From contig JAQVXI010000002.1 of the NCBI GenBank assembly GCA_028709215.1, positions 78,880 through 142,879 on the forward strand: 64,000 nt of DNA, read 5' to 3'. The position numbers and the translations under genes are program-made. Shown here piece after piece: positions 7,016-52,857 of this stretch (position 1 is its first letter; each line of letters opens with the position of its first letter). The stretch comes from Bacteroidales bacterium. GTDB taxonomy: Bacteria > Bacteroidota > Bacteroidia > Bacteroidales > UBA1402. The notes under the pieces are model-generated. The model was not told the DNA's origin and searched no databases. It saw only the letters and a list, made by a program, of their open reading frames with translations.

Positions 7016-7023
7016 TATATTTG
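7016..7023 (+). promoter_or_regulatory. Bacteroidota -7 promoter box (TATATTTG) for the PUL
   Basis: It matches the TAnnTTTG consensus of Bacteroides-type sigma-A promoters, 27 nt upstream of ATG 7050. I found no well-spaced -33 TTTG. Confidence 0.4.
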
Positions 7024-7049
7024 TTTCAAGTGATGAAACATTTTATATC

Positions 7050-13264: not shown

Positions 13265-13299
13265 TTATAACCCTTATTTCTAACCCAAAACAAAAAAAG

Positions 13300-16112: not shown

Positions 16113-19100
16113 ATGAAACGGAACTTAATCCTATTTCTAATCACGTTCTGTCTTTTTTCCATCACAGAAGCACAGACCAGTCAACTGGCCTTTCCCGGAG
16201 CAGAAGGTTTCGGAAAGTATGCCGTAGGCGGTCGTTACGGCTCTGTCTATCGTGTAACCAACCTAAACGACTCAGGTACAGGTTCATTGCGGGATGCAGT
16301 GAGCAGTTCCAATCGAATTATTGTTTTTGAGGTGGCTGGAGTGATCAACATAAACAGCCCATTAGTTTTTTCAAACAACTTATACATTGCCGGACAAACT
16401 GCTCCGGGTGAAGGTATTGTAATCTACGGAGATCGATCTTCGTTCTCAGGAGCCAGTAATACCATTGTGCGCCACATACGCTTTCGTATGGGCAAAGGAG
16501 GTGCTTCGGGTGCCGATGCCGTGGGCATCGCAAACGGTACCCATATGATTTTTGACCATGTTTCTGTTGCATGGGGTTTGGATGAGACCTTCTCTATTTC
16601 TCCCGATAACAAAGGAGCATTGGGCAACATCACCATTCAGAATTCCATCATCGGCCAAGGCTTGCTTTCACACTCTGCAGGCGGACTTATTCAAGCCGAC
16701 AACATCACACTATATCGCAATTTGTACGTAGATAACTCTACGCGCAATCCCAAAGTCAAAGGGAAGAATCAATACGTAAACAATATTGTATACAATTGGA
16801 AAAATGCAGCCTACATCATGGGCGGTGAATCTACCGGTGATGCTTATTGCAATGCCGTTTCCAATCTGTTTATCAAAGGACCCTCCGGAGGAAGTGTTGC
16901 TTTCAGCGGTGGAAACTCCTTATTCCATCTGTATGCTGCCGACAATTGGGTCGACAAAACGGCAGACGGTAACTTGTCTCCCTATTTAATCCCCAACGCT
17001 GAATATTCGGGTGGACCGGATTTTCAGTCACAACCCTACGATTATCCACAATTGCCTACATGGACGGCCAATCAGTTGGTAGACTCCTTGCTTCCGGTTG
17101 TAGGAGCCAGTCTGCCGTATCGTGATTTGGCCGATTGGTATATGGTCAATGAAGTGCGTTCGTTTGGATTGGAGGGCAAACTCATTTCAGAAGAAAATCA
17201 ATTGCCCATCGGCATTCCGAGCAGTTGGACCTTCTGGTCCGGAATCGCTCGTGCGGACCGTGATCAGGATGGCATGCCCGATGCATGGGAAATAGCCAAC
17301 CAATGCAATCCGGATGTCAATGATGCAATGACCATTGCCGATAACGGCTATGCCAACATTGAAAATTACATCAACAGCATTGATGTAGAAGATCGTCAAG
17401 CCTTTTTGCGTGCGCCGCTCGCCGTTTCTTTACAGGTATCGACTTCATCCAGTCTGACCATCGCTTGGTTGGATTATACGGAAGGAGAGGACGGTTTTGT
17501 AGTAGAAGCCAAAACGGATGCCGATTATGTGGTGATGGCTCAGGTAGAGGCTGGTGTACAATCGGTCACTCTCAACGATCTCCAACCGGCAACCGCTTAC
17601 ACGATACGAATCAAATCGTTCCATTCGGAACGTTCGTCCGAATATACTTCGGAGCAGACGTTTAAAACACAACCCGAGGAAGTCCCGGTCATTGATCCGA
17701 ATGCCTATGTTCCGGACTTAACCTGGTCTGCCGAGTCCGGTATTTGGGACTATGCACAACTCAATTGGAACGATGGAAGCAAAGCCTTTCAAAAGGGGGA
17801 CTCCCTCTTATTTCAACCCTTGAGTGATATTCAAGTTCAATTGAACGATAGTTTGGAAATTGGTGCACTCGTGGTTAAAGATGATGGAAACGTTGCTTTT
17901 ACCGGAACCGGTGTGTTGACCGGTAACGGATCCGTCAATAAAGCCGGAGCCAGCACACTCTCGTTGGGTGACCAACACGTCTATACAGGTGCCAGCGTCC
18001 TATCTGAAGGTACATGGATGCTTTCTTCTTTGCGTGACGGAGGTTTGTCCAGTTCGTTGGGTGCATCCCAGGAATTTGCACAAAATTGGATCTGGAAGGG
18101 TGGCGTATGGAACTATACCGGAGCAACCACCGCAACCAATCGCAATGCGACTTTGTATGGAACATCTACATTTGCCATTTCAAATCCAGCGACTACGGTT
18201 ACATTGAATGGAGCGTTGGAAGGAACCGGTGGCATGATTTTGGATGGAGCAGGAACCTTGCGCATCAATCAGGCATTTGCTTACGAAGGCAATACGGTAC
18301 TAAAAGGTGGTACGTTGTATATTGAGGGAGCCAGTTTGATCGATCAAGGCATCGGAACCTCTCCAAAATTGGTCATGGCCGGTGGTTCTTTTAAAACCAA
18401 AGATTCCAACGATCGTTATGGCGTATACAGTTTCCCGATCGAAGTGCTTGAAGGAACCTATTCTACCCTTTACGTACACAGAAATTGCTCCATCAAATCT
18501 AAGGTGAGCGGTTCGGGTACGTTGGAATACCAGGTAAACTATCTGCGTGAGTATGTTACCGGAGATTGGAGAGACTTTACCGGACACTTAGTGGTCAACG
18601 GAGTAAACTCCAAAGCAGGTGAATGCCAATTCATGTTGTTAAATGGGAATGGTATACCCAATGCGACCTTGTATACTAAAGGAAACGTTCAAATCGTCTG
18701 TTGGTCTACATCCGCAACCTATTATTTGGGCGGATTGTCGGGAGATCCTTACACGTATTTGTCCGGTTCCAGCAAGAATACGACGTCGGCTCAGATGAAA
18801 TGGGTTGTCGGAGGTGCAAATACCGATGAAACCTTCCGTGGAATTATCGACAACCGATGCAGTGCAAGTAGTTACAATGGCACAACATCGATTGTAAAGA
18901 CCGGTGAAGGACTTTGGCGTTTGACCGGAATCAATGTATACAAAGGAACGACTGAAGTTCAGCAAGGCAAATTGATCGTCAACGGGAACCACACCGGTTC
19001 AGGCGCCGTAACGGTGTCTAATGGTGCAGAGCTGGCCGGTGAAGGCAGTTTAAGTGGTCGCGTGACCTTGTTGGACGGCGCCTTGTTGCGCGCCGGCGAT

Positions 19101-19700
19101 ACAATCGTTGACAACAAGATGTTGAACTTGAGAGGCGGATTGACCTTGTCTTCTACGTCTGTGACTCAAATACCCCTATTGAAATCCAGTCCAATCACCC
19201 GCAAGGCAAATCAAATTGTCGTAAACGGAACGGCTGTGTTGAATGGGACACTTCAATTGAATTTGGATCAGATCAGCTATCCACTTCAAAAGAACAACTA
19301 CTTTGACGTGTTTGACTTTTCCAATGCGAGTGTTACCGGAACCTTCTCTGACATATCACCGGCTACACCGGGCGAAGGTCTGATTTGGGATCTGACTTCT
19401 TTGTATACGAATGGTCGCATCTATGTACGCGAAGAAGGATGGGTCAGTGTGCCTCAGATCGGTTTGGAGGATACCGACGTGTATCCGACGATGGTTACCG
19501 ATCATTTATCGGTTCAATTGCCATCAACCGTTGCGGAAGCGAGGGTTGATGTGCTGGATCTGACCGGTGTTGCACACATACAAACGGCCATTTCCGGTTC
19601 TGCATCCATCAATACCTCCGATTTGGCTTCAGGCATGTATATCCTACGCCTGAGCCAATCCAATGGTAAGACGGTTACGAGAAAGATTATGAAGCAATAG
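16113..19700 (+). CDS. PL1-type pectate lyase fused to FN3, autotransporter-associated beta-strand (PATR) repeats and a canonical T9SS type-A C-terminal sorting domain
   Basis: Signal peptide, then AFPGAEGFGKYAVGGRYGSVYRVTNLNDSGTGSLRDAV, MIFDHVSVAWGLDE and NSTRNPKVKG (PL1-like). A Ca-binding-type DRDQDGMPDAWE motif follows. FN3 covers aa ~434-519 (nt 17412-17669). PATR units include GSVNKAGASTLSLGDQHVYTGASVLSEGTWML, GGMILDGAGTLRINQAFAYEGNTVLKGGTLYI and IVKTGEGLWRLTGINVYKGTTEVQQGKLIV. CTD details are in the next feature. Confidence 0.85.
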   Translation: MKRNLILFLITFCLFSITEAQTSQLAFPGAEGFGKYAVGGRYGSVYRVTNLNDSGTGSLRDAVSSSNRIIVFEVAGVININSPLVFSNNLYIAGQTAPGEGIVIYGDRSSFSGASNTIVRHIRFRMGKGGASGADAVGIANGTHMIFDHVSVAWGLDETFSISPDNKGALGNITIQNSIIGQGLLSHSAGGLIQADNITLYRNLYVDNSTRNPKVKGKNQYVNNIVYNWKNAAYIMGGESTGDAYCNAVSNLFIKGPSGGSVAFSGGNSLFHLYAADNWVDKTADGNLSPYLIPNAEYSGGPDFQSQPYDYPQLPTWTANQLVDSLLPVVGASLPYRDLADWYMVNEVRSFGLEGKLISEENQLPIGIPSSWTFWSGIARADRDQDGMPDAWEIANQCNPDVNDAMTIADNGYANIENYINSIDVEDRQAFLRAPLAVSLQVSTSSSLTIAWLDYTEGEDGFVVEAKTDADYVVMAQVEAGVQSVTLNDLQPATAYTIRIKSFHSERSSEYTSEQTFKTQPEEVPVIDPNAYVPDLTWSAESGIWDYAQLNWNDGSKAFQKGDSLLFQPLSDIQVQLNDSLEIGALVVKDDGNVAFTGTGVLTGNGSVNKAGASTLSLGDQHVYTGASVLSEGTWMLSSLRDGGLSSSLGASQEFAQNWIWKGGVWNYTGATTATNRNATLYGTSTFAISNPATTVTLNGALEGTGGMILDGAGTLRINQAFAYEGNTVLKGGTLYIEGASLIDQGIGTSPKLVMAGGSFKTKDSNDRYGVYSFPIEVLEGTYSTLYVHRNCSIKSKVSGSGTLEYQVNYLREYVTGDWRDFTGHLVVNGVNSKAGECQFMLLNGNGIPNATLYTKGNVQIVCWSTSATYYLGGLSGDPYTYLSGSSKNTTSAQMKWVVGGANTDETFRGIIDNRCSASSYNGTTSIVKTGEGLWRLTGINVYKGTTEVQQGKLIVNGNHTGSGAVTVSNGAELAGEGSLSGRVTLLDGALLRAGDTIVDNKMLNLRGGLTLSSTSVTQIPLLKSSPITRKANQIVVNGTAVLNGTLQLNLDQISYPLQKNNYFDVFDFSNASVTGTFSDISPATPGEGLIWDLTSLYTNGRIYVREEGWVSVPQIGLEDTDVYPTMVTDHLSVQLPSTVAEARVDVLDLTGVAHIQTAISGSASINTSDLASGMYILRLSQSNGKTVTRKIMKQ
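19473..19697 (+). other. Canonical T9SS type-A C-terminal sorting domain of the PL1 protein
   Basis: DVYPTMVTDHLSVQLPSTVAEARVDVLDLTGVAHIQTAISGSASINTSDLASGMYILRLSQSNGKTVTRKIMKQ. It contains the YP..(V/A) start, the G(M/I)Y(I/L) motif and the K(I/L).K ending typical of Por/T9SS CTDs. Confidence 0.8.
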
Positions 19701-19729: not shown

Positions 19730-21994
19730 ATGAGAAATCCCAGATTCAAGTATCTGATGATCGGAATCTTGTCGCTTCCCTGGCTTTTTATGTCCTGTAA
19801 GGACAACATGGACGACCATTATGCGATCCCCGATTGGTTAAAAGGCAGTGCATACGAAGTACTGTTATCAGAAGGTGATTATTCCATTTTTCTGGAAGGA
19901 ATTGATAAGGCCGGTTACAAGCCCATTGTCAATGGAAAGAGCATTTTGACCGTGATGGCACCCAATGATTCTGCATTTACGGTTTATCTGAACGATAAAG
20001 GATATGCCGGTATTTCAGACATGCCGGAGGTTGAGTTAAAAAAACTGATTGGTTTCCACTTAATGTATTATGCATTTGATTGGAACAAACTGGTCAATTT
20101 CCGACCTGCTGAGGGCGATGGTGCAACGGAAGAAGATAAGGCGCAATTTGCCGGCTATTATTTCAAACACCGTACCAAAAGTATGGATCCCGTTTCACGG
20201 GAATACAACTCCATTCTTGGTGATTCCGTATCCGTGTATCATTTTGAACGGTTTTTGCCCGTCTTTTCCTATCAGATGTTCCAGACCAAAGGAATTGATG
20301 CTGCGTCCAATTACGAATACTTCTTCCCCAACTCAACGTGGACGGGTGGAAGTACCGGATTTAATGTGGCAAATGCCAGCGTGCTCAATACAAGTAATGT
20401 AATTACGGATAATGGTTACGTCTACTTTATTGATCAGGTTTTGGAGCCGCTTGAAACCATTTACACCGAGCTCAAAAACAATTATGAGGAGTATTCCATC
20501 TTCTTTGATTTGTACAACTCCTCATCAACGTATGAATTGGATGCGGAGATTACGCGTGACTTTGGTGATGGTGAAGACCTGTACCTACACAGTCACAGTG
20601 GCTTGTTGAACATCGCCTATGAATGGCCTACGTCCAACTATGCTGCGATCGTTGACCTCTCCAGTGTGTGTTACAACATTTTTGCACCTTCCAATACTGC
20701 GTTGACCAACTTTTTTGATTCCTTCTGGAAAGCGGGTGGTTACAACAGCTTGAATGAGTTGGATCCCTTGGTGTTGGAATATTTGATCGCTCAATCCTAT
20801 GCGAACGATACACGTCCGGTTTTCCCGGATGACATTCGCAGCGGTAAGGTTAAGACGGTATTGGGCACACCGGTTGTGTTGAATCCGGAAGATGTAAGCT
20901 TGCGTCGCTTCTGTGTAAACGGTACCTTGTATGGGATTGGCAACATGACTGCACCGGCCATCTTCTCATCGGTAGCCGGCCCTGCATTCAAGTACTTGGA
21001 TTATCGCAACTACCTGTATGCGCTGGATGGATCCGGATTGTTGTTGGCGCTTGCCTCACAGGAAAGTCAGTTCATTACGTTGATGCCGGACACGGCACAA
21101 TTGGCAACCGAACGCATCCGTTTGGCCGAACTGACGACCGGTAACCGTCTTCAAATATTTTCAGACGATGCCGGAGCGTATGTGGATATGTCTGAGAGTG
21201 AAATGTCTAGCATTGTAAACATTCACTTGGCGAGTGGCGTGTCTGAATTAAAGACATCCGGTATTCAGGTATTGGAATCCAATACCGCCTTCAACTACTG
21301 GTATGTCGTAGATGGTAAGATAACAACCAATGCCTTATTCAATCAATACCTGACGCCTGAATTTACGGGTGACCCCTTTGTTGCGTTTACAGAAATTAAA
21401 AACGGAGCATCCACTTGGGACAATGGACGCGCCTACAGTTATGCGTTCGACGGTTTGTTTAAATCGGATGCAGGGGATGGTCTGGAATACACCCTGGCCA
21501 TTGCAAATGATACGCGTTATCCTTACTACATGTTTTCGCAGCTGCTGCAAAAAGCCGGTTTGGTTGATGGTACCGAGCTGACACATTTGATGCCGGATAC
21601 GCGTTTTATCGCATTTATTCCAAGCAACGAAGCCATCAAGGCACGATTGAGCGAAATACCGGGTGCAGACAGATTGTCCGTTACAGCAGGTGGCTCGTTG
21701 AGCGGAACCCTATCCAGTACCAATAAAACGAAATTGGCCAAATGGTTGCGTTCATACTTTATTACTTCCGATCTGAATACGTTTACGCAATATCCGTATC
21801 CAGGATCTTCGGTCAAAGGCGATTATGACACCTATGGTGCAGATAATATGCATGTTGTGGATACCGGAAGTAGCTTGCAAGTGAAATTTCAGGCTTCTGA
21901 AGCAGCCACTGTGTCGGTCGTATCGACCTTCCACTTCCTTCCTTTTGCGTATAAGGACGGCTGTTTTCATGTGATTGAAGATATACTATTGTAA
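19730..21994 (+). CDS. Surface lipoprotein with four fasciclin (FAS1)-like domains
   Basis: Lipobox LFMSC|KDNMDD (acidic +2..+6). FAS1 H1/H2-like motifs recur: LTVMAPNDSAFTVYL / GYVYFIDQVLEPL, NIFAPSNTALTNFF, ITLMPDTAQLA, and IAFIPSNEAIKARL / GCFHVIEDILL at the C-terminus. Confidence 0.8.
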   Translation: MRNPRFKYLMIGILSLPWLFMSCKDNMDDHYAIPDWLKGSAYEVLLSEGDYSIFLEGIDKAGYKPIVNGKSILTVMAPNDSAFTVYLNDKGYAGISDMPEVELKKLIGFHLMYYAFDWNKLVNFRPAEGDGATEEDKAQFAGYYFKHRTKSMDPVSREYNSILGDSVSVYHFERFLPVFSYQMFQTKGIDAASNYEYFFPNSTWTGGSTGFNVANASVLNTSNVITDNGYVYFIDQVLEPLETIYTELKNNYEEYSIFFDLYNSSSTYELDAEITRDFGDGEDLYLHSHSGLLNIAYEWPTSNYAAIVDLSSVCYNIFAPSNTALTNFFDSFWKAGGYNSLNELDPLVLEYLIAQSYANDTRPVFPDDIRSGKVKTVLGTPVVLNPEDVSLRRFCVNGTLYGIGNMTAPAIFSSVAGPAFKYLDYRNYLYALDGSGLLLALASQESQFITLMPDTAQLATERIRLAELTTGNRLQIFSDDAGAYVDMSESEMSSIVNIHLASGVSELKTSGIQVLESNTAFNYWYVVDGKITTNALFNQYLTPEFTGDPFVAFTEIKNGASTWDNGRAYSYAFDGLFKSDAGDGLEYTLAIANDTRYPYYMFSQLLQKAGLVDGTELTHLMPDTRFIAFIPSNEAIKARLSEIPGADRLSVTAGGSLSGTLSSTNKTKLAKWLRSYFITSDLNTFTQYPYPGSSVKGDYDTYGADNMHVVDTGSSLQVKFQASEAATVSVVSTFHFLPFAYKDGCFHVIEDILL

Positions 21995-22012
21995 AATTGA
22001 AATGCACACAAT

Positions 22013-25000
22013 ATGAAATGGTTTAAATATTTTATGGTTGCTATGGTTCTGTTGCTTGCAGCAGATGTCTCGGCTCAGAATATCATCCTTTCCGGTCGTG
22101 TGACCGAACGGTTTGGTGGATCCATTGAGCCCATCTACAGCGCCAACGTGGTCGTAGTCAACAAACAAAACCGCTACTTGAATGGGGTGATTACCGATTT
22201 GGATGGTAATTACAACATTTCTGTTCCCGCCGACGAAGAAGGCTTACGCATTCGCATCTCGTATATTGGTATGAAGACCCAAACCTTCCCCTTTACCGGG
22301 CAGCGTCGTTTGGATGTCCTTCTGGAAGAAGATACACAAACATTGACAGACGTTGTAATCACGGAAAAGAGAATTGAACGGGATGGTATGGGTGTCTCCA
22401 GAAGAGAGCAAACTTCGGCCACCCAAAAGCTGGATATGGAAGAGATCATCTCCAATGTTCCGGTATCTACGATTGAAGAAGCCCTTCAAGGGCAATTGGG
22501 GGGTGTTGACATCGTCTTGGGTGGTGATCCCGGAGCACGAAGCGCCATTCGCATTCGTGGAACCAATTCGTTGAGTGCTTCTTCCGAACCCTTGATCGTA
22601 ATCGATGGAATTCCCTATTCTACAGATATCAGTGATGATTTTTCGTTTGCAACGGCCAACGAAGAAGATTTCGGAGCCTTGTTAAACATTGCTCCCTCGG
22701 ATATCGCCTCCATAGAAGTGTTGAAAGACGCGTCCGCTACGGCCATTTACGGTACCAAAGGATCCAATGGGGTTTTGTTGATCACGACCAAAAAAGGGTC
22801 CAAAGGACGAACCAACTTTACGTTCTCATCCAAGTATACCGCCAAATTTGAACCCGCGTCCATACCCCTGTTGAACGGCAGCCAATACGTTGCCATGGTG
22901 CAGGATGCGTTGTGGAACACAGCCAATGCAAAAGGGCTTGCTTCGGCCAGCAACGAATTGGACTTGTTGTTTAATACCTACGAAATCAACTACGATCCAA
23001 GCTGGCAATTCTTTGACGAATACAACGTGGATACGGATTGGTTGGAACTGGTGCGCCAAACGGCCATCACTTCAGACAACAACTTCTCCCTGTCGGGTGG
23101 GGGAGACAAAGCAACCTATCGTTTTTCGTTGGGTTACTTGAACGAGCAGGGTACAACGATTGGAACCAATTTGGATCGTTTGACCACCAAATTGAACATC
23201 AATTACGACTTCTCGGAACGCCTGCGTGTCACGGCCGATTTTGGTTTTACGCAAAGCGACCGCGCTGCCAACTATTTGAATGTGCGCAGCGAAGCGATGA
23301 CCAAGATGCCCAACAAAAGCCCATACTACTTGGATGATGTGACCGGTCAGACGACCGATATGTATTTTTCAAGACAGGAAGATGATTTTCAGGGTGCGTT
23401 CAATGGCAGCAGCCATTACAACCCCTTGGCCATGGCCAACGAAAGTTACAACAATACGATGCAACGGGAAGAAAAAATCTCGTTCAATATCCAGTACCGT
23501 TTTCCATTCAATTTGACCTATCAAGGGTATGTGGCGATGAACATGCGTACCACACGCAACAACAAGTTCTTGCCTCAGATTGCAACCGGTGTACTTTGGA
23601 CCAGTTCCAACGCCAATCGCAGTACGGATGCCGTATCAGACAACTTTGTCTTGCAGTCCGAAAACAAATTGTTGTACAACAAAACGTTTGATGAAGTGCA
23701 TAGCCTGATTGCGACCGGATTGTTCCGTACCTCTCAATCGCAAAGCTTCAGTTATACCAGTTCAACGTCCGGAAATGCTTCGCCTGAATTATCCGATCCT
23801 ACCGTGGGTAGTGTTGTTGCCGGAATTGGCAGTGGTCTCTCAGAGAGCCGCAGCGTCTCCAGCATTGCACAGGCCATTTATACCTACGACGACCGTTATG
23901 TGTTGAAAGGTACGGTCAATATGGAAGGCAATTCAGCCATGGGTAAATCCAATCGATTCGGAACATTCCCATCCTTTGGTTTGGCATGGAATGCCGAAGA
24001 AGAATCCTTTGTAGAAGATTTGTTCTGGTTGGATGAAGCCAAAGCGCGCGTCAGTTTGGGTTGGAGTGGTAACGCTCCGAGCGGTTCAGCCTTGTATCTG
24101 GGAGCCTATCAATCGTTGGGTTCGTATATGGACATGCCGGCCATTTATCCGGTTCGCATTCAGTTGGATAAATTGAAGTGGGAAACGTCCAGAGAGTGGA
24201 ACTACGGTGTGGATATGCGCTTGTTCCAAAACAAATTGGGCTTTACGGTAGATTATTACAGCAAGTATACGTACGATTTGTTGCTTAGCAATGTAAGTAT
24301 TCCGGCAACAACGGGTTATTCAACGATCAAGTATTTCAATTCGGGTGAGATGAGCAATCGAGGTTGGGAATTCCGTACCGATTATGAAATCTTTAAAAAC
24401 AAAGATTGGCGCGTAGCAGCCAACTTCAACATCAGTCGCAACAACAACAAAGTAGAGAAGTTGCCGGAAAACATGAACGAAGAGAATTACACCTTCGGAA
24501 ACGGAAATTATGCCGTTCGCATTGTTGAGGGTGACCCCATCGGATCGTTCTATGGCTATCGCTACAACGGTGTGTATCAAAATACCGAGGACACCTATGC
24601 GTTGGATGCCGAAGGCAATGTGATGTATGATTACAACGGAGACATCATCGGAATGAAAAATGGTACCCTTTCGGTTTACCCCGGAGATGCCAAGTACGAA
24701 GACATCAACAAAGACGGTGTGATCAACGAATACGACATTGTTTATTTGGGTAATGCCAACCCGATTCTGATCGGTGGGGGCGGATTTACCGTCAAGTACA
24801 AGCAACTCTCGTTGACTACCTTCTTCTATGGTCGATACGGTCAGAAAGTGATCAACTCCGCCCGTATGTCTTTGGAGAATATGTACGGTACCAACAACCA
24901 AAGTACGGCTGTATTGAAGCGTTGGAGAAACGAAGGAGACGACACCGACATTCCTAGAGCTTTGTATGGAATGGGTTACAACTACCTGGGTTCCGATCGC

Positions 25001-25255
25001 TTTGTGGAAGATGCTTCTTTTATGCGCTTGAAGACCTTGTCTTTGTCGTATGCTGTGCCTTCCACGCTGCTTAAGCAGGTAGGCATCAATAGTCTAAGTG
25101 TATTCTGTACCGGATACGATTTGTTTACTTGGACCAATTATACGGGTCAAGATCCGGAAGTCTCGTTGCCTTCTTCGGCAACCAGTCTGGTCAAAGACAA
25201 CGCGACGACGCCTGTATCCAGAAGAGTCTCTCTTGGTTTTAATCTTAATTTCTAA
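22013..25255 (+). CDS. SusC/RagA-family TonB-dependent outer-membrane transporter, pair 1
   Basis: 1080 aa. The order is signal peptide, carboxypeptidase-regulatory-like N-domain (ILSGRVTE...DGNYNISV), TonB-box region DVVITE, plug (IRIRGTNSL...PLIVIDGIPY) and a terminal beta-strand ending in F. There is no N-terminal STN signalling extension. Confidence 0.9.
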   Translation: MKWFKYFMVAMVLLLAADVSAQNIILSGRVTERFGGSIEPIYSANVVVVNKQNRYLNGVITDLDGNYNISVPADEEGLRIRISYIGMKTQTFPFTGQRRLDVLLEEDTQTLTDVVITEKRIERDGMGVSRREQTSATQKLDMEEIISNVPVSTIEEALQGQLGGVDIVLGGDPGARSAIRIRGTNSLSASSEPLIVIDGIPYSTDISDDFSFATANEEDFGALLNIAPSDIASIEVLKDASATAIYGTKGSNGVLLITTKKGSKGRTNFTFSSKYTAKFEPASIPLLNGSQYVAMVQDALWNTANAKGLASASNELDLLFNTYEINYDPSWQFFDEYNVDTDWLELVRQTAITSDNNFSLSGGGDKATYRFSLGYLNEQGTTIGTNLDRLTTKLNINYDFSERLRVTADFGFTQSDRAANYLNVRSEAMTKMPNKSPYYLDDVTGQTTDMYFSRQEDDFQGAFNGSSHYNPLAMANESYNNTMQREEKISFNIQYRFPFNLTYQGYVAMNMRTTRNNKFLPQIATGVLWTSSNANRSTDAVSDNFVLQSENKLLYNKTFDEVHSLIATGLFRTSQSQSFSYTSSTSGNASPELSDPTVGSVVAGIGSGLSESRSVSSIAQAIYTYDDRYVLKGTVNMEGNSAMGKSNRFGTFPSFGLAWNAEEESFVEDLFWLDEAKARVSLGWSGNAPSGSALYLGAYQSLGSYMDMPAIYPVRIQLDKLKWETSREWNYGVDMRLFQNKLGFTVDYYSKYTYDLLLSNVSIPATTGYSTIKYFNSGEMSNRGWEFRTDYEIFKNKDWRVAANFNISRNNNKVEKLPENMNEENYTFGNGNYAVRIVEGDPIGSFYGYRYNGVYQNTEDTYALDAEGNVMYDYNGDIIGMKNGTLSVYPGDAKYEDINKDGVINEYDIVYLGNANPILIGGGGFTVKYKQLSLTTFFYGRYGQKVINSARMSLENMYGTNNQSTAVLKRWRNEGDDTDIPRALYGMGYNYLGSDRFVEDASFMRLKTLSLSYAVPSTLLKQVGINSLSVFCTGYDLFTWTNYTGQDPEVSLPSSATSLVKDNATTPVSRRVSLGFNLNF

Positions 25256-25266
25256 TCTGTACCGTA

Positions 25267-26817
25267 ATGAAACGAATCATACTAGGAATCTGGGCCTTTT
25301 TAAGCCTGTTTACATTTAGCTCCTGTAACGATTGGCTTGACATCTTGCCGTCCAACGAACAAGTGACGGACAATTATTGGAAATCCAAAGAAGATGTTGA
25401 GGCCGTGGTTACGTCCGGCTACTATTATATGCGATCGACCGTACCTCAAATGTTGATTTGGGGTGAGGTGCGCGGCGGAACGTTGTTTTCCAACAATTCA
25501 GCGGACGTTTATCTGCAAAACTTTAATTTAAATCCGAGTCATTCTATTGTAAATTATACTAATGTATATAAAGTCATTAGTATGGCCAATTCGGTCTTAA
25601 AGTACGCACCTTCGGTTCGCGAGATTGACGATACGTATTTTGAGCCCATCATGAATTCGCACCTGGTGGAAGCCTACTTTATGCGCGCATACAGTTACTT
25701 CCTCTTGGTTAAGAATTATCGGGATGTACCCTTGGTGCTAGATGCCTACGTCAACGACGATGCATCCTATGAATTGCCCAAGTCGACGGAAGCTGAAATC
25801 ATCGAGCAGATAAAGAAGGATATTCTTGCTGCGTTAGAAACCGGTGCAGCCAAAGAAAAATATGAGATCGATTGGCAAACCAAAGGTCGTGCCACCGTAT
25901 GGGCTTTGTATGCCTTGATGGCCGATGTTTGCTTATGGAGCGAAGATTACGAAGAGAGCATTGTTTACGCCAACAACATTTTGAATGCAACGGCCGCTTT
26001 TCGTCCTGTATTTATGCAGGATCCGCTCAAATGGTTTGACATCTTCTATCCCGGCAACAGCAACGAATCCATTATGGAATTGAATTGGGACAATACCACC
26101 TATCAACAGAACAACAACTTTGGTGGTTACTTTAATTTGTCCAGCGGATCTCGTCTGCGGTTTACCGATGCCTCCATTCAAACCTTTAAGGATGAAACGG
26201 ATGAAATTAAGAAGGAAAACCCTACGTTGGATGGACGATTGGGACGCACGTTAATGGGCTCTTACGTGCACAGTGGGGCTGCCATTGCCGATTATACAAC
26301 AGCCAATCAGTTTTATGTGTGGAAATACAAAGGAACGGATGTTGCCGATCGGGAGAATCTGCGTACGGCCGAAGATGCCAATTTTATTTTGTATCGTGTA
26401 GCGGAAGTCCTGTTGATCAAGGCCGAGGCGTTGATCTTGCAAGGACCGGCTTATTGGCCCGCTGCCCTGGAAATCATCAATCAAGTGCGTGAGCGTACGT
26501 ATTTGCCTGCCATTGAATTGGAAACTTCCGAAGCCGATGAGTTGACCCTGCTCGAGTTGGTATTGCACGAACGCGAAATGGAATTTGTCGGTGAAGGCAA
26601 ACGATGGTACGATTTGCTTCGCTTTGGTCGCATGCAGTCGTTCAAATACAAAGAACAATTTATAACCAAAATCGTGTCTTCCAATCAGACGACCAATCCG
26701 CAGTGGATCAAATCTGTTTTGAAAAGCGAGGACGCTTGGTATATGCCGATTCCTGAAAGTGAAATTCAAACCAATCCGCTTTTGGAACAAAATCCATATT
26801 ATGCAACTACAAAATAA
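25267..26817 (+). CDS. SusD/RagB-family lipoprotein, pair 1
   Basis: Lipobox FTFSSC|NDWLD. TPR-like SusD signatures are present (AYFMRAYSYFLLVKNY, FILYRVAEVLLIKAEA, ERTYLPA..., REMEFVGEGKRWYDLLRF). It lies 11 nt after SusC. Confidence 0.9.
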   Translation: MKRIILGIWAFLSLFTFSSCNDWLDILPSNEQVTDNYWKSKEDVEAVVTSGYYYMRSTVPQMLIWGEVRGGTLFSNNSADVYLQNFNLNPSHSIVNYTNVYKVISMANSVLKYAPSVREIDDTYFEPIMNSHLVEAYFMRAYSYFLLVKNYRDVPLVLDAYVNDDASYELPKSTEAEIIEQIKKDILAALETGAAKEKYEIDWQTKGRATVWALYALMADVCLWSEDYEESIVYANNILNATAAFRPVFMQDPLKWFDIFYPGNSNESIMELNWDNTTYQQNNNFGGYFNLSSGSRLRFTDASIQTFKDETDEIKKENPTLDGRLGRTLMGSYVHSGAAIADYTTANQFYVWKYKGTDVADRENLRTAEDANFILYRVAEVLLIKAEALILQGPAYWPAALEIINQVRERTYLPAIELETSEADELTLLELVLHEREMEFVGEGKRWYDLLRFGRMQSFKYKEQFITKIVSSNQTTNPQWIKSVLKSEDAWYMPIPESEIQTNPLLEQNPYYATTK

Positions 26818-26824
26818 GTTCCAT

Positions 26825-28474
26825 ATGAAACTCAAACAAATCTTCTTATTTATGCTGCCCCTCCTGGCTTTTATAGCCTGTGAGGATCCGTACAAGGACA
26901 GCACATACCAGGTATACGATGAGAATCCCATCTCCAGCTATTTGTCCGATCAATCCGAGTATTCGGAGTGGGTCAGCATCTTGAAGTATGCCAATATGTT
27001 TAACGCGCTCAATCAAGCCGATCAAGACTTTACCGCTTTTGTGCCCAACAACGAAGCCGTAACCGCTTTTTATCAGAAAAAAGGGGTTGCTTCTATTGAA
27101 GAATTGGGTGCGGAATATGCGAAGAGTTTGGTCTTATTCCACACCGTCTTGGATACCATCAGTGTGGATGATTTCATCAATTCAACGAGTATTACCAATT
27201 TATCCAAGGATCAATTGAGTATTCAAATTGATTCCACAACGGCTGGAGAGGCTATTTTGAATGGAGAAGCCCGTGTCACGCAAATGGCCTTTTCGGTTTC
27301 AAACGGTGTGATTTATTTTCTCGCTGACGTCATGACTCCGCTGGTTGAAACGGTTTACGAGCGGGTTGCTCAGAATGAATCCTACAGCATCATGCGCGAA
27401 GCGCTCGATGCGACCGGTTGGGCTGATTCCCTCAATACCTTGGCCGACACCACCTACTTGGATGGCGTACAGTCCGTGTCTAAGCGGTATTATACGTTTT
27501 TAGCCGTAACAAATGCCAGTTTTGCGCAGGAAGGAATCCAAAACCTATCCGATCTAAAGACAACGTTGGGAGCCGGTGAAAACGTACAGGACAGTGCCAA
27601 CGCTTTGTTTCAATACGTAGCGTATCACATTCTACAGTCCAATTATACCCTTGAAAACCTGACTTCATTCAATGGAGCCGATACATCCAGTATTTGGGAT
27701 ACAGCGGCAGACAATCAGGTAATGATGGTTACGCTGGATAGCCTTTCGCAAGAAAAGTTTTTCTTGAATCAGTTGGGTACACCGGCCAACTTTGTGGTTG
27801 AATCGTCGGATGTGCTGGCGAAGAATGGATTTCTGCATGAGATCAGTGGGTATTTGCCCATTTGGGAACCCCAACAAGCCACCGTTCTATGGGACTTGAC
27901 TGATTACGGAGACGTGCGCAATTTGGTGCCTACCGAAATCTATCAACCCGCTGCACCGGTTTCTTCGGAAGACAATCTGAATATTTTTGATGCCGCCAGC
28001 TACGTAGCAGAAGTGTCTGCTTCGGGCGTGAGCAATCGTACGTACAATTATTTGGCCTACGTCACCTGTAAGACCAATTTGCGCGATGCCAACTATTTTG
28101 ACCGCCTGGTCATCAATTTGGGCTATCTGGGTCATGTAACCATGCGTACACCGACCTTGGTAAAAGGCAAATACCGTGTCGATTTGAAATTTGTTTACCT
28201 GTCCGATCATGCATTCATGCGTACCATGAGTGACGGCAACGGCGGTTTGATGAAAATCAGCTTTGACGGGGATCACGTGGCCAATGTTTCTCCGTATACG
28301 ACGGTTACCCGTACGCTAGCCGGAGTCTACGATGCGACCTTGTATGATGAAATCGAATTTGAAACCACAGCCAAACACGATTTCAAAATCATCATCATGG
28401 ATCCGGCGGCAAGCACCAATTCGAAATTTAGCTTGCAATTGGATTGCATCACCTTTACCCCCATTACGGAATAA
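26825..28474 (+). CDS. Lipoprotein with two FAS1-like domains and a C-terminal beta-sandwich-like module
   Basis: The track ORF starts at 26759 inside susD. ATG 26825 gives MKLKQIFLFMLPLLAFIAC|EDPYKD. FAS1 motifs are FTAFVPNNEAVTAFY / NGVIYFLADVMTPL and YTFLAVTNASF / NGFLHEISGYLPI. The last ~190 aa end ...FSLQLDCITFTPITE. Confidence 0.8.
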   Translation: MKLKQIFLFMLPLLAFIACEDPYKDSTYQVYDENPISSYLSDQSEYSEWVSILKYANMFNALNQADQDFTAFVPNNEAVTAFYQKKGVASIEELGAEYAKSLVLFHTVLDTISVDDFINSTSITNLSKDQLSIQIDSTTAGEAILNGEARVTQMAFSVSNGVIYFLADVMTPLVETVYERVAQNESYSIMREALDATGWADSLNTLADTTYLDGVQSVSKRYYTFLAVTNASFAQEGIQNLSDLKTTLGAGENVQDSANALFQYVAYHILQSNYTLENLTSFNGADTSSIWDTAADNQVMMVTLDSLSQEKFFLNQLGTPANFVVESSDVLAKNGFLHEISGYLPIWEPQQATVLWDLTDYGDVRNLVPTEIYQPAAPVSSEDNLNIFDAASYVAEVSASGVSNRTYNYLAYVTCKTNLRDANYFDRLVINLGYLGHVTMRTPTLVKGKYRVDLKFVYLSDHAFMRTMSDGNGGLMKISFDGDHVANVSPYTTVTRTLAGVYDATLYDEIEFETTAKHDFKIIIMDPAASTNSKFSLQLDCITFTPITE

Positions 28475-28485
28475 TACTGAATGCT

Positions 28486-30177
28486 ATGAAAAAAAATAAA
28501 TTTTTATCGTTGGGAGTGATGGCCCTAACTGCCGTACTCTTCGTTGCGTGCAACGAGAGTTGGAGTGACCATTACGATCGTGTGGACATGGAAATCGAAA
28601 ACGATCAGGTATTGATTGTGAATGAAACCTCCGCAGACTACCTGGATCAAGCGGATGACCTCTCGCAAATGTATGCGTTTCTAAAAAGCGAAGGTGTGTT
28701 TGACACCTTGGCCATCAAGGACCAGTTGCATACCTTGTTTTTGGTCAAAAACGAACATTTTTCGGAGGTCGATCCGGATAAATCCAGTTTTATCGCCAAA
28801 TCGCACGTGACGGATATTGCCATTTCTCCGTCCAACTTGTATGACGGAGAGCGCATTCTGATGTGGCATGGCAAGTACATCTCGGTCTCCATGGACTCCT
28901 TGGCTGCCGCCGGTCACATCGACCACATTCAAATCAACGAGTCGCCGGTTACGGAAGTCATCAAGACAAAAGATGGCTACATCTACGTGTTGGAATCGAT
29001 GATCGAAACGCCGCTCTCGATGTACGATATCATCAACGATTTGGGCGAAGAATACTCCTTGTTTAAGGATATGGTTATGTCTGAAAACGTCTTGGAGTTT
29101 GACCGCCCCAACAGCAAGCCCATTGGTGTCGATAATACCGGAAACACGGTGTACGACTCGGTTTTCATCATCACGAATCCGTTTTTTGATGCCAAACGCT
29201 TTGATCTGACATCTGAATCTTTAACCGCAACGGTGCTGATTCCGACCAATGAAGTCCTTGAGCAGGCCATGGCCGATGCAAAAACCAAGCTGGCCGAGTG
29301 GGAAATGAGTCGTGATACCAACATCATGAAAAAATGGATTCTTGAAGTGGCCTTCTTTAACAAGAAATACAGCGTTGCTGATTTGGAAGAAAACGAAGAC
29401 ATCTTCTCCATTTACGGTCGTCAATGGAGAACAACGGTTCAGCAATTGGATACCGAAAATCCCATCCGTATGAGTAACGGCATCGGTTACCGGGTCAATT
29501 GGATGAAAATCCCCAACAATGTATTGATGTATCGTCTCAAGGATTATTTCTACTATTACGAGAATTGCTCCGAGACGCAAAAAGCAGAATATTTTGTCGG
29601 CAACAACCTACTTTTCAAAGAATGTGTTACCGATGTGCCTGCTTGGTCGCCTTTGGCCGGGGTTTGGCCAGATGTTGAAAACCGTGTACTGGTTTATGAG
29701 TTTATTGATCCGGTGATTGACGGGTTTACCCTGGACTTCACCCCAGTCAAACGTGTAGCCAACGAAGACGGTGGATTTGAAGTGAAACCCTGGAAAATTC
29801 CTCCCGGTGAGTATTCGTTGGGCATGGGTTTCAAACAAAGTTTGAATCTGGAGGTGGATATTTCCATCATCGACGGAAGTGAAGTCACTTCGTATGCTAC
29901 GACCACCTTGGGTTCTGCCACGACCTTCCATTACGATCGTGGATCGGGTAGCTATGCGGAAGGGTATAAGGAAGCACTGGATGCCGGACTTATTTCACAT
30001 AGCAAGAAAGGTAATTACGACCGTGACGGTGGACAAATCGGAACCGTTGAGTTGAAGGGTGACGGTAACGGCAATCCAGCTCCTTTTGTGATTAGAATCA
30101 ACAACGTTACGTTCGGCAGTGCAACCAAAATGGTGTTTCACCACTGGTGTCTGAGACCTACGAGCAATAATTATTAA
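28486..30177 (+). CDS. Lipoprotein with FAS1-like domains and a C-terminal beta-sandwich-like module
   Basis: ATG 28486 gives MKKNKFLSLGVMALTAVLFVAC|NESWSD. FAS1-like motifs are LHTLFLVKNEHF / DGYIYVLESMIETPL and ATVLIPTNEVLEQAM. The C-terminal module ends ...MVFHHWCLRPTSNNY, which resembles the end of the previous protein. Confidence 0.7.
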   Translation: MKKNKFLSLGVMALTAVLFVACNESWSDHYDRVDMEIENDQVLIVNETSADYLDQADDLSQMYAFLKSEGVFDTLAIKDQLHTLFLVKNEHFSEVDPDKSSFIAKSHVTDIAISPSNLYDGERILMWHGKYISVSMDSLAAAGHIDHIQINESPVTEVIKTKDGYIYVLESMIETPLSMYDIINDLGEEYSLFKDMVMSENVLEFDRPNSKPIGVDNTGNTVYDSVFIITNPFFDAKRFDLTSESLTATVLIPTNEVLEQAMADAKTKLAEWEMSRDTNIMKKWILEVAFFNKKYSVADLEENEDIFSIYGRQWRTTVQQLDTENPIRMSNGIGYRVNWMKIPNNVLMYRLKDYFYYYENCSETQKAEYFVGNNLLFKECVTDVPAWSPLAGVWPDVENRVLVYEFIDPVIDGFTLDFTPVKRVANEDGGFEVKPWKIPPGEYSLGMGFKQSLNLEVDISIIDGSEVTSYATTTLGSATTFHYDRGSGSYAEGYKEALDAGLISHSKKGNYDRDGGQIGTVELKGDGNGNPAPFVIRINNVTFGSATKMVFHHWCLRPTSNNY

Positions 30178-30196: not shown

Positions 30197-33100
30197 ATGA
30201 AAAAGATGAGGATATTCTGGATGGCATTGTTACTGGCTTTCTCAACGGTTGCTTCTGCAGCGGTTGTAAGGGGAAAGGTACAGTCCACCGATCAATCTCC
30301 CGTAGCAGATGCGGTCATCACACTGCCCGGTCATGAAAGTGTTCGTTCTTCACAAGACGGTTCGTTTGAATTGAAAGAGGTGGAGGCAACCGGACATCTG
30401 ACCGTTTGGGCGACCGGTTTTTATGTTCAAACACTGCCTTTGAAGGGTCAAACCGAACTACAGATTCAATTGATCCCGGAAGACAAGTACAAATACAACG
30501 AAACCTTGGTTTTACCCTTTCGTACAGAAACCGGAACCAACGAGGGCATTTCTTCCAGCAACCTGAGCAAGAAAGATTTTGCCTTGGGTAGTATGAGCAT
30601 CGACAAAGCGCTCAAAGGAGAAGTGGCCGGTTTGCAGGTTACCCAAAAAAGTGGCATGACCGGTGAAGGCGCGTACTTCAACTTGCGTGGACTTCGTTCG
30701 CTGGTTTCTGACAATGCGCCCTTGATCGTGTTGAATGGTGTACCCTTTTTGCCGAATAAAAACGAATCCAGGTTGATTAGCGGGTATTCCCGTTCTGTCT
30801 TTCAGGCGTTAAACATCAATGATATTCAAAACATTACGGTGTTGAAGGGGGCTGAAGCCGCTTTATATGGTTCGATGGGTTCTAACGGTGTCATTATGAT
30901 TGAAACCGATGGAGCCGCTTCGGATGATTTGAATACCAAGATTAGTTATTTTGCTCAGGTGGGTGTCAATTGGAACAACAAGCAAATGCCTTTGATGAAG
31001 AATCAGGAGTATAAGTCTTATTTGTCGGATATTGGTATGACGTATTACAACAATATGGAGACCTTTTTCGGCGAATTTCCTTTCTTGACCGATCCCAACA
31101 ACATTTATTCCTATTTGTACGACAACAGTACCGATTGGCAAAATGTGATTTCCGGGAACAGCCTGGTCACCGACCACTTGTTTCGGGTAGAAGGAGGGGA
31201 TGCCATCGCCAAATACGATATCTCGTTGGGTTATACCCGAGATGAGGGAACACTGTTGAATACGGCCTCAAGCCGCTATCACACACAGATTAATACAAAC
31301 GTTTTGGTTAGTCAGAAATTTGAGATTGCAACCACAGTTGGTTTGGCATACTTGAATGGAAGTTATCAGGAACAAGGGATGAATGCCGCAACCAACCCGA
31401 TGTTGGCTGCCTATCAAAAGGCCCCACTGTTGAGCCCATTTAAGAGTGATATCAATGGCAACGAGTTGGCGACCTATTCCAGTTACTATTTTGGCGCGTC
31501 CAACAATATGGATTTTGCCGGAAGTAATCCCCTGGCGCTTGTAGAAACACTTACATCCGGAAATCGTCAATACGATGTGAGTGCCAAAGTAGCCTTGACC
31601 TACAAACCCACCAACGATTTGTCATTCAATGCCAACGTGGGACTGTATTACAACTACGATCAGGAAAACATGTTCATCCCGGGTATCAACAACAAGGATA
31701 TCATGCCCATTTACGATCAATACGGGCAAGCGTCCAATACGGTACGTGTTGGAGTTGCTGAAACCTTCAATATGTACGTTGGACTGACCGGTGCCTATAA
31801 GAAAACACTGGACGAACGCAACCGATTGGATGCCAACGCCGGTTTTCAAATGATCACTACGTCCAATGAATTTGATGCCGGTTCGGGTCGTAATACGCCG
31901 AATGACTTTTATCAAACCTTGGGTGACGTGAACGCTGTAGGACGGTATTTCTTTGGTTACATCGACGTCTGGAATTGGATGAGCTATTATGCACGTGTTG
32001 CCCATACGTATGACGATGTATTGCGTACTTCTGTTAATGTTTCCATCGATGGAGCGTCTTCTACCGGTGCCGATGCACCGCAGTTTGGCGTCTTCCCTTC
32101 GTTGAGTATGACGTATATGGCAAAGAACGCCGGATGGTTGTCGGGTGTGGATGCCATCAATACGTTCAACCTGCGTGCTGAGTACGGATTGACCGGAAAT
32201 AGTCGTTATTCTTCCAAATATGGAAAATACTATTACACCAGTCGTCCGTATCAGGGTATTTCCGGTATCATTCGTGCCAACGTACCCAATACGGAATTGG
32301 AATGGGAGAAGAATGCTCAGTTTGATTTGGGTATGGATGTTTCGATGCTCAATAATCGTGTGGATGTATCGCTGGGTTATTACAACAGCCAGTCTACCGA
32401 TGTGTTGATGATCAGCCCCAATTCCTCTGTTTATGGTACGGGAGTATACTACAGCAACGATGCGGCCATTTCTTCGGATGGTGTGGAATTGTCTGTCAAC
32501 GTAACGCCCGTACAAACCAAGGATTTCCGTTGGGTACTGGGTGGAAACGTAGCCAAGGCAAACAATTCTGTCAAATCATTGGGTGGTGTTCAGGAAACGC
32601 TGATCACTCTATCGGATGATGCTCAGTTGATTACGCGTGTCGGTGAAGATCCGTATGCTTTTTACGGGTATGAGACCGAGGGTGTTTTTGCTACGACAGA
32701 CGAGGCTGTTTCAGCAAACTTGAAGAACCTGAATGGTTTGTCTTATTCTGCCGGTGATGTCCGTTATGTGGATCAAAACAACGATGGGTACATCAACGAA
32801 GAAGATCGTGTGATTTTGGGTTCGGCTTCTCCTGATTTGTTGGGAGGCGTTTTTAACCGTTTCCAATACAAACAGTTTGCGCTGGATGTAAATTTGGCCT
32901 TCTCGATTGGGAATGAGGCATACAATGCCGTGCGCAGAAGCATGGAATCCTCTTCGGATTTTAGCAATCAATCCAGAGCGGTCAATCGTCGATGGACCAT
33001 GGAAGGACAAATTACGGATATGCCCAAAGCAAGCTGGGGCGATGTGATTGGAAACAACGATTTCTCGGATCGCTGGATTGAAGACGCTTCGTATGTGAAA

Positions 33101-33322
33101 CTGCGCGACGTTACGTTGAGTTATTCTTTCAACAAACCCGTATGGAATTTCTTCCAATCTGGTGTGTTGTTTGTGACGGGTGAGAACTTATTGACATTTA
33201 CCAACTACCTGGGTATGGATCCGGAATTCTCTTATTCCTATAGCGATGCCTTGCAAGGGATTGATTACGCGAAAGTAGCTTTGCCCAAAACGGTCAAAGT
33301 TGGTGTTAACTTGAAATTCTAA
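30197..33322 (+). CDS. SusC/RagA-family TonB-dependent outer-membrane transporter, pair 2
   Basis: 1041 aa. The order is signal peptide, carboxypeptidase-regulatory-like N-domain (VRGKVQSTD...DGSFEL), plug (FNLRGLRSL...PLIVLNGVPF) and the C-terminal strand VKVGVNLKF. There is no STN extension. It is only distantly similar to pair-1 SusC. Confidence 0.9.
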   Translation: MKKMRIFWMALLLAFSTVASAAVVRGKVQSTDQSPVADAVITLPGHESVRSSQDGSFELKEVEATGHLTVWATGFYVQTLPLKGQTELQIQLIPEDKYKYNETLVLPFRTETGTNEGISSSNLSKKDFALGSMSIDKALKGEVAGLQVTQKSGMTGEGAYFNLRGLRSLVSDNAPLIVLNGVPFLPNKNESRLISGYSRSVFQALNINDIQNITVLKGAEAALYGSMGSNGVIMIETDGAASDDLNTKISYFAQVGVNWNNKQMPLMKNQEYKSYLSDIGMTYYNNMETFFGEFPFLTDPNNIYSYLYDNSTDWQNVISGNSLVTDHLFRVEGGDAIAKYDISLGYTRDEGTLLNTASSRYHTQINTNVLVSQKFEIATTVGLAYLNGSYQEQGMNAATNPMLAAYQKAPLLSPFKSDINGNELATYSSYYFGASNNMDFAGSNPLALVETLTSGNRQYDVSAKVALTYKPTNDLSFNANVGLYYNYDQENMFIPGINNKDIMPIYDQYGQASNTVRVGVAETFNMYVGLTGAYKKTLDERNRLDANAGFQMITTSNEFDAGSGRNTPNDFYQTLGDVNAVGRYFFGYIDVWNWMSYYARVAHTYDDVLRTSVNVSIDGASSTGADAPQFGVFPSLSMTYMAKNAGWLSGVDAINTFNLRAEYGLTGNSRYSSKYGKYYYTSRPYQGISGIIRANVPNTELEWEKNAQFDLGMDVSMLNNRVDVSLGYYNSQSTDVLMISPNSSVYGTGVYYSNDAAISSDGVELSVNVTPVQTKDFRWVLGGNVAKANNSVKSLGGVQETLITLSDDAQLITRVGEDPYAFYGYETEGVFATTDEAVSANLKNLNGLSYSAGDVRYVDQNNDGYINEEDRVILGSASPDLLGGVFNRFQYKQFALDVNLAFSIGNEAYNAVRRSMESSSDFSNQSRAVNRRWTMEGQITDMPKASWGDVIGNNDFSDRWIEDASYVKLRDVTLSYSFNKPVWNFFQSGVLFVTGENLLTFTNYLGMDPEFSYSYSDALQGIDYAKVALPKTVKVGVNLKF

Positions 33323-52852: not shown

Positions 52853-52857
52853 TGCGA

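Follow-up and report, generated by a model that had tools for sequence, protein, structure and literature searches.

The 64,000-nucleotide stretch analysed here (positions 78,880 to 142,879 of contig JAQVXI010000002.1, assembly GCA_028709215.1 of a Bacteroidales bacterium; hereafter the window) carries a cassette of seven genes, in which three lipoproteins with fasciclin-like (FAS1) domains, designated FAS-A, FAS-B and FAS-C, are encoded together with two pairs of SusC/SusD transport proteins. We consider it probable that these lipoproteins are surface accessory components of a conserved two-transporter system of pectin uptake, in which the FAS1 domains form stalks and the C-terminal beta-sandwiches of FAS-B and FAS-C form the glycan-binding tips, while FAS-A is more likely to be a scaffold. 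The cassette as a whole is proposed to be the transport core of a locus for the utilisation of the pectin backbone, mainly of rhamnogalacturonan-I (RG-I).

The genes of the cassette follow each other in the order FAS-A, SusC1, SusD1, FAS-B, FAS-C, SusC2, SusD2 (Table 1). The gaps between them are 4-19 bp long, FAS-A is separated from its upstream neighbour by 29 bp, and the three FAS genes are probably co-transcribed with the susC/susD pairs. The cassette belongs to a longer series of 13 genes on one strand (6999-36184), the gaps in which are 4-32 bp, except for one four-base overlap and one gap of 71 bp. Gene calling performed independently on public contigs of identical sequence gave FAS-A, FAS-B and FAS-C products of the same lengths. 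We regard the seven-gene layout as real, because the FAS1 lipoproteins pass the Pfam threshold and two proteins of the SusC type and two of the SusD type are located between and after them; the coordinates and the order of genes proposed by the initial annotation are thus matched by the open reading frames (ORFs), the gene calls, Pfam and TIGR04056. Both SusC proteins exceed the TIGR04056 cut-off of 368 bits. As they share only 27% identity (BLASTP), the pairs SusC1/D1 and SusC2/D2 are, judging by this divergence, separated since long ago. SusD1 is clearly a SusD protein, whereas SusD2 barely passes the Pfam SusD_RagB model and has no match in NCBIfam, nor in the PDB even when a 12-sequence profile is used as the query; its lipobox is conserved, and hhalign relates it to the SusD1 family with a probability of 99% and an E-value of 2e-18.

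The cassette is strictly conserved. When one genome of each species was scanned for related loci, 104 were obtained; 80 of these were kept, and the ORFs called in them were matched to the proteins of the window. The order of the seven genes was complete in all 58 loci that could be tested upstream and in all 60 that could be tested downstream, the full set being present in 56 loci, and in none of the 80 did the FAS genes occur apart from both SusC/D pairs. The lipoproteins, described initially as flanking the transporters, are therefore locked to them in every testable relative. The hosts represent six families of Bacteroidales (Prevotellaceae, Bacteroidaceae, Muribaculaceae, Dysgonomonadaceae, Rikenellaceae and Odoribacteraceae) and also include one genome of Marinilabiliales, that of Mangrovibacterium. 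Among Bacteroidales of the rumen and gut the cassette is widely distributed, the cultured Bacteroides finegoldii and B. xylanisolvens being among its carriers. The mean identity to the window is 43-60% for the FAS domains versus 50-58% for the SusD proteins. The flanks vary: a lyase is often located upstream, and a 715-aa protein or distant relatives of an 852-aa protein, both discussed below, are often located downstream. Full-length relatives of FAS-B number in the hundreds and bear the name "DUF5108 domain-containing protein" or that of [quoted passage not shown]; the relatives of FAS-C are named "hypothetical protein".

As to the localisation of the FAS proteins, each of the three has a cysteine after a hydrophobic leader, and the lipobox sequences CKDNMDD (FAS-A, where KDNMDD follows the lipobox FMSC), CEDPYKD (FAS-B) and CNESWSD (FAS-C) were read correctly at the outset. 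The lipobox cysteine is kept in 61 of 62 FAS-A, 77 of 77 FAS-B and 73 of 73 FAS-C orthologues from the 80 related loci (211/212 altogether). Acidic residues are enriched in these orthologues at positions +2 and +5/+6, which is the same pattern as in SusD1 and SusD2, taken as the controls for surface lipoproteins, and which agrees with the lipoprotein export signal K-(D/E)2 of Bacteroidetes (PMC5080379). By this sequence proxy the initial reading of the three proteins as surface lipoproteins fits, and FAS-A, FAS-B and FAS-C are probably exposed at the cell surface.

The FAS1 domains are recognisable by sequence to different degrees. At a gathering cut-off of 22 bits, the Pfam model Fasciclin (PF02469) matches FAS-B with 86.5 bits (E-value of 2e-24, in two stretches), FAS-A with 43.2 bits (5e-11) and FAS-C with 38.5 bits (1.5e-9). 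FAS-A consists of four repeats, located at about nt 19817-20455, 20456-20965, 20966-21499 and 21500-21991 (residues 30-242, 243-412, 413-590 and 591-754). Their hhalign values against the first domain of FAS-B are 96.8%, 96.3%, 60% and 75%, respectively, and the first two repeats can be considered firm FAS1 domains (96-97%), the last two being probable ones (60-77%; Pfam E-value of 0.06). Each repeat possesses an H1-like motif (LTVMAPNDSAF, YNIFAPSNTAL, FITLMPDTAQL and FIAFIPSNEAI), and an H2-like end is found in all four. At the level of sequences and profiles, no C-terminal beta-sandwich or other module resembling a carbohydrate-binding module (CBM) was detected in FAS-A.

FAS-B and FAS-C share another design, a pair of FAS1 domains followed by a beta-sandwich. 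In FAS-B these parts occupy nt 26921-27340, 27347-27862 and 27872-28471, and in FAS-C nt 28603-29013, 29014-29520 and 29521-30174. The AlphaFold2 model of FAS-B has a mean pLDDT of 84, and its FAS1 pair is matched by Foldseek with periostin, TGFBIp and fasciclin I (E-values from about 1e-16 to 1e-14); in the model of FAS-C (pLDDT of 76.5) the FAS1 pair is found with an E-value of 3e-11, the second domain being hardly visible by sequence (17 bits with Pfam). Both models align with the FAS1 pairs of periostin, TGFBIp and fasciclin I over approximately 305-340 columns (one FAS1 fold comprises about 140 residues), and their single FAS1 domains reach target-normalised TM-scores of 0.7-0.84. The domain counts given initially, about four FAS1-like domains in FAS-A and two in each of the other proteins, are thus borne out, with the gradation into firm and probable repeats in the case of FAS-A. 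Searches of the PDB by sequence retrieved only eukaryotic FAS1 proteins with FAS-B and nothing significant with FAS-A and FAS-C, and none of the three is matched by an NCBIfam model.

The C-terminal modules of FAS-B and FAS-C, the ends of which (LQLDCITFTPI and FHHWCLRPT) are as quoted initially, are of particular importance for the proposed function. Residues 399-547 of FAS-B constitute a DUF5108 domain (PF17133; 91.7 bits, E-value of 7e-26, gathering cut-off of 27.4), and the same Pfam model has no match in FAS-A or FAS-C. Residues W356, D357, D360, Y412, G471-G474 and D526-D540 are conserved in this module. The claim of the initial annotation that no DUF-type surface glycan-binding protein is present fails for this reason. 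As for its companion, the absence of SusE/F-like proteins, SusE and SusF have no Pfam match in the three FAS proteins, and in the lists of the 50 best Foldseek matches to the FAS-B model and to the FAS-C model no such structure is found. Of 1.84 billion representative proteins searched with the DUF5108 domain as a query, only 86 clusters were retrieved, nearly all of them 520-620 aa long and with the domain at the C-terminus. Considering the size of the family and this uniformity of length and domain position, the FAS1/DUF5108 architecture is narrow and seems almost confined to the seven-gene cassette.

A sequence kinship between the two C-terminal modules was considered and rejected, as hhalign gave a probability of 0.9% and BLASTP no alignment. 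Described at first as related, they are so only at the level of the fold class: both are beta-sandwiches, and a sequence relationship is not detectable. For the module of FAS-B, Foldseek found structures of the CBM35/CBM6 type (7byx, 3zm8, 4qaw, 7ehg and a module of xanthan lyase), with E-values from 9e-7 to 1e-4. The sandwich of FAS-C gave weak matches, with E-values of about 1e-3, to CBM35 (2w1w, 2w47), CBM6 and CBM61; 2w47 is a CBM35 bound to delta-4,5-anhydrogalacturonic acid. Since the predicted folds are CBM6/35-like, both modules are sensible candidates for the sugar-binding parts, which is what was initially suggested for them.

The enzymes encoded around the cassette provide grounds to predict its substrate. 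A PL1-like lyase, a GH28 enzyme and a YteR-like GH105 enzyme are encoded in the window and a PL11 lyase in a relative, and the set points to the pectin backbone as the target of the locus, most likely chiefly to RG-I. The GH105 enzyme is similar to YteR (PDB 1nc5, E-value of 4e-74) and to 4wu0 (2e-95). The label "Glycosyl Hydrolase Family 88", borne by its Pfam model, is misleading in this case: with the YteR-type identity of the protein, pectin takes the place of glucuronate-containing glycans as the inferred substrate. The N-terminal part of the 1195-aa lyase matches a pectate lyase (PDB 9buj, E-value of 5e-29) and is PelZ-like according to NCBIfam, while its C-terminus is a sorting domain of the type IX secretion system (T9SS; Por_Secre_tail, 33 bits in Pfam and 41 bits with TIGR04183). 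SprA, a core component of this system, is encoded 18 kb downstream of the lyase, at 38017-45333. The closest NCBIfam models of the GH28 enzyme are those of the rhamnogalacturonidase BT4153 and the alpha-D-galacturonidase BT4155, both matched below their cut-offs.

The relatives present a similar picture. In B. finegoldii the cassette is preceded by an esterase-GH105 fusion and a PL1 gene, and in a contig from the human gut (L087) it is located between GH105/GH2 and a PL11 RG-I lyase, so that the direction towards pectin, taken already in the initial annotation, is supported by PL1, GH105 and PL11 in the relatives as well as by the three enzymes of the window. The PL1 gene of B. finegoldii (locus L085) encodes a protein of only 521 aa; compared with the lyase of the window with its T9SS domain, this means that the same cassette is paired with differently exported lyases across lineages.

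The glycan-binding role of the FAS proteins is plausible and probably has an experimental precedent, because a DUF5108 protein is named in a published table within BT4164-BT4169 (PMC10434189), the core of the RG-I locus of B. thetaiotaomicron (BT4145-83; PMC3243724), and BT4167 is listed in a review as the surface glycan-binding protein for RG-I, the import of which proceeds through the SusC/D pairs BT4164/65 and BT4168/69, encoded on either side of BT4167 (PMC8002723). Moreover, BT_4163 stands beside BT_4164/65 in a table, within a section devoted to the cargo of outer membrane vesicles, of those entries of PUL77, as this locus is designated, that are reduced in a dma2 mutant (PMC13088901). 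Judging by the order of the genes, the counterparts of FAS-A, FAS-B and FAS-C would be BT4163, BT4166 and BT4167, respectively, and the same cassette appears to be present in PUL77. The B. thetaiotaomicron precedent weakens the statement of the initial annotation that the role of such proteins next to SusC/D is experimentally undefined. A search with a divergent human-gut orthologue named 20 clusters, including B. finegoldii, B. xylanisolvens and Bacteroides sp. 224, and B. thetaiotaomicron was not among them.

The most likely task of the FAS proteins is the capture of pectin at the surface of the cell, and the three may, as initially proposed, serve both SusC/D pairs. In the proposed scheme the lyase, exported by the T9SS to the cell surface, would cut the polymer, and FAS-B and FAS-C would keep it, whole or in fragments, close to the transporters. 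In these two proteins the tandem FAS1 domains would form a stalk on top of the lipid anchor, with the CBM6/35-like sandwiches as glycan-binding tips. Both SusC/D pairs would import the fragments, and the GH28 and GH105 enzymes would complete the degradation in the periplasm. FAS-A, with its four FAS1 repeats and without a beta-sandwich, is likelier to be a scaffold or a docking subunit than a classical binder. The data show the domain content, the lipoprotein signals, the strict synteny and the pectin-related enzyme context; we infer the surface exposure of the FAS proteins, their physical association with SusC/D, glycan binding, and a division of labour between stalk and tip.

Several points speak against this interpretation. 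To our knowledge, no role in the binding of carbohydrates is established for FAS1 domains, which in FAS-A are accompanied by no detected CBM-like module. The CBM likeness of the FAS-B and FAS-C modules exists at the fold level only, and no Pfam CBM model matches either protein at the thresholds used; for FAS-C the structural match is itself weak, and the pLDDT falls to 47-59 across residues 471-520 of the C-terminal module. The putative homology to BT4163, BT4166 and BT4167 is based on annotation names and gene order. Finally, a lyase of the PL1 type (PL1/PelZ-like) would also fit homogalacturonan, a possible substrate alongside RG-I.

The main rival reading is that the FAS1 proteins are obligate structural subunits, stabilising a mixed SusC1D1-SusC2D2 assembly or docking the surface lyase, with contacts to sugar being secondary. 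Such a role would agree with the four FAS1 repeats of FAS-A, where no CBM-like module was detected, with the order of genes, invariant over a wide taxonomic span, and with the conservation of the FAS proteins, which matches that of the SusD proteins. Conservation of this degree is unusual for accessory binding proteins. FAS1 domains are, besides, known for protein-protein interactions (PMC6032426). However, FAS-B and FAS-C end in CBM6/35-like sandwiches, the B. thetaiotaomicron gene at the position of FAS-C is reported to encode an RG-I binder (PMC8002723), and structural and binding roles can coexist; we consider a chiefly structural function unlikely. A broader proposal seems to us possible, if still rather doubtful in its entirety: FAS-A, FAS-B and FAS-C would be fixed subunits which both hold together and decorate a hetero-oligomeric machine of one SusC1D1 and one SusC2D2 unit, conserved since before the split of Bacteroidales and Marinilabiliales, FAS1 would be a prokaryotic stalk and scaffold for glycan capture, and DUF5108 and the C-terminus of FAS-C would each stand for a family, so far unrecognised, of modules that bind uronic acids.

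The FAS1 proteins might also be general adhesins, attaching the cell to plant particles or other cells and only loosely tied to transport, as FAS1 is a classical cell-adhesion domain, fasciclin proteins of bacteria are usually annotated in this sense, and bacterial FAS1 proteins are treated as adhesins (PMC10199937, PMC7661554, PMC3914696). The constant association of the genes with both SusC/D pairs in the 80 loci, their operon-tight spacing and the near confinement of the DUF5108 architecture to the cassette make this quite improbable. Least probable of all, to the point that we would be surprised by it, is that they are lipoproteins facing the periplasm, or enzymes of an unrecognised family acting on imported oligosaccharides. 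The exposure at the surface is deduced from sequence, and several neighbouring proteins of the locus are likewise without known function, which leaves some room for such a role; but the acidic residues after the lipobox cysteine match the SusD controls, and no catalytic fold was seen, the Foldseek matches of the FAS-B and FAS-C models being limited to FAS1 and CBM-like structures.

Table 1. Genes of the predicted pectin-utilisation operon in the window
Feature	Coordinates	Strand	Evidence
(Rhamno)galacturonidase-like enzyme of family GH28; probably opens the operon	6999..8495	+	Pfam Glyco_hydro_28, 78 bits
715-aa conserved protein	8526..10673	+	no Pfam/NCBIfam match
852-aa secreted protein	10706..13264	+	Fn3_assoc / CHB_HEX_C repeats
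926-aa paralogue of the 852-aa protein	13261..16041	+	52% identity; same Pfam repeats
Cell-surface pectate-lyase-like enzyme with T9SS C-terminal sorting domain	16113..19700	+	PDB 9buj; Por_Secre_tail
FAS-A lipoprotein, 754 aa, four FAS1-like repeats	19730..21994	+	Pfam Fasciclin, hhalign
SusC1 TonB-dependent transporter	22013..25255	+	TIGR04056, 762 bits; Plug and CarboxypepD_reg domains
SusD1 lipoprotein	25267..26817	+	SusD_RagB, 131.5 bits; SusD-like_3, 67 bits
FAS-B lipoprotein, 549 aa: FAS1, FAS1, DUF5108 beta-sandwich	26825..28474	+	Pfam, AlphaFold2, Foldseek
FAS-C lipoprotein, 563 aa: FAS1, FAS1, own-family beta-sandwich	28486..30177	+	Pfam, AlphaFold2, Foldseek
SusC2 TonB-dependent transporter	30197..33322	+	TIGR04056, 594 bits
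SusD2, very divergent SusD-like lipoprotein	33327..35003	+	Pfam SusD_RagB, 24.2 bits; hhalign vs SusD1 family
GH105 unsaturated rhamnogalacturonyl hydrolase	35015..36184	+	PF07470 (Pfam model named GH88), 349 bits

Three proteins encoded between the GH28 enzyme and the lyase deserve a separate comment. The 715-aa protein has a mean column identity of 71% across six orthologues, and orthologues with 52-56% identity adjoin the cassette in seven loci. Its profile gave marginal matches in the PDB to (alpha/alpha)6 proteins of the GH65 type (E-values of 0.007-0.02); as these are the only leads, the protein may be an (alpha/alpha)6 glycosidase of an unclassified family. As for the tandem paralogues of 852 and 926 aa, Fn3_assoc and CHB_HEX_C repeats are their only known parts, and searches matched them through these accessory repeats only. 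At the C-terminus they bear a weak likeness to the sorting domain for the T9SS with which the lyase ends. In many loci of Prevotellaceae, proteins related to the 852-aa one with identities of 26-29% are encoded downstream of the cassette.

Neither a hybrid two-component regulator nor another regulator typical of such loci was found among the scanned ORFs of at least 180 aa in the 64-kb window; a hybrid two-component regulator directly adjoins the cassette in three loci of Bacteroidaceae (L070, L052 and L059). Farther downstream, on the minus strand, a thiamine pyrophosphate (TPP) riboswitch was identified at 52765-52854 (60 bits, E-value of 3e-9), upstream of a thiamine biosynthesis cluster with Thi4, ThiC and ThiD genes (49245-52769). 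The Thi4 ORF is listed with a TTG start that overlaps this riboswitch, and the true start is therefore probably located further downstream. An ORF of 818 aa at 45305-47761, also on the minus strand, matches no Pfam family at E-values up to 1e-4.

In the searchable literature we found nothing relevant on fasciclin domains together with SusC/D or utilisation loci, bacterial FAS1 proteins being discussed there only as adhesins, and the FAS1/DUF5108 make-up and the strict conservation of the seven genes seem to be undescribed in it. Proteins annotated merely as DUF5108 or hypothetical are predicted to be lipoproteins that have a stalk of FAS1 domains and a CBM-like tip and are strictly linked to two SusC/D pairs. 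DUF5108 gains a concrete functional hypothesis in this way, and the FAS1 fold would be extended to nutrient capture in bacteria. Pectin is a major dietary fibre, and the wide distribution of the cassette in rumen and gut Bacteroidales adds ecological weight to the system. The strict conservation of the seven genes makes it a good target for cryo-electron microscopy of a two-transporter complex, and the cassette could serve as a marker when loci for the pectin backbone are predicted in metagenomes.

Among the known systems, the closest comparison is provided by PUL77 of B. thetaiotaomicron (BT4145-BT4183), where a SusC and a SusD gene, two accessory genes (BT4166 and BT4167), and again a SusC and a SusD gene follow each other (PMC8002723), BT4163 being located upstream. 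It also resembles the window in the DUF5108 protein annotated in BT4164-69 and in the context of GH28, GH105 and lyase genes. In contrast to the PL1-like lyase of the window with its T9SS sorting domain, B. thetaiotaomicron uses the lyase BT4170, which we take to be of family PL9. Furthermore, the window belongs to an uncultured member of Bacteroidales with a type IX secretion system, and its locus is much smaller and, as far as the scanned ORFs of at least 180 aa are concerned, without a nearby hybrid two-component regulator. A similar layout is found in the Segatella copri locus NQ544_01775-01830, induced on homogalacturonan and RG-I, which we liken to the cassette by layout.

Like SusE/SusF and the SGBP-B proteins (SGBP, surface glycan-binding protein), the FAS proteins are multi-domain lipoproteins without a catalytic domain, FAS-B and FAS-C following a susD gene and having a distal beta-sandwich, in our case one predicted to bind sugar. 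The stalks of classical accessory proteins of this kind are usually built of Ig-like or FN3-like domains, whereas those predicted in the window consist of FAS1 domains, and the FAS proteins are conserved as highly as the SusD proteins. In B. xylanisolvens the counterpart from a homogalacturonan locus is FnIII-like (PMC4769552).

With the eukaryotic proteins TGFBIp, periostin and fasciclin I the window proteins share the tandem arrangement of FAS1 domains (FAS-A has the same number, four, as TGFBIp and periostin), and these eukaryotic proteins are the best structural matches of FAS-B and FAS-C (E-values from 1e-16 to 1e-11). However, the sequence identity is only 10-18%, and, in contrast to the integrin-mediated adhesion of the eukaryotic proteins, those of the window are lipid-anchored, fused to CBM-like modules and encoded in a nutrient-uptake operon. 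As to the CBM35 and CBM6 modules, the fold predicted for the FAS-B and FAS-C modules is likewise a beta-jelly-roll; neither protein has a Pfam CBM match, and DUF5108 is a separate and very small sequence family. Some CBM35 and CBM6 modules bind uronic acids, and a ligand of this class would suit the products of the lyase.

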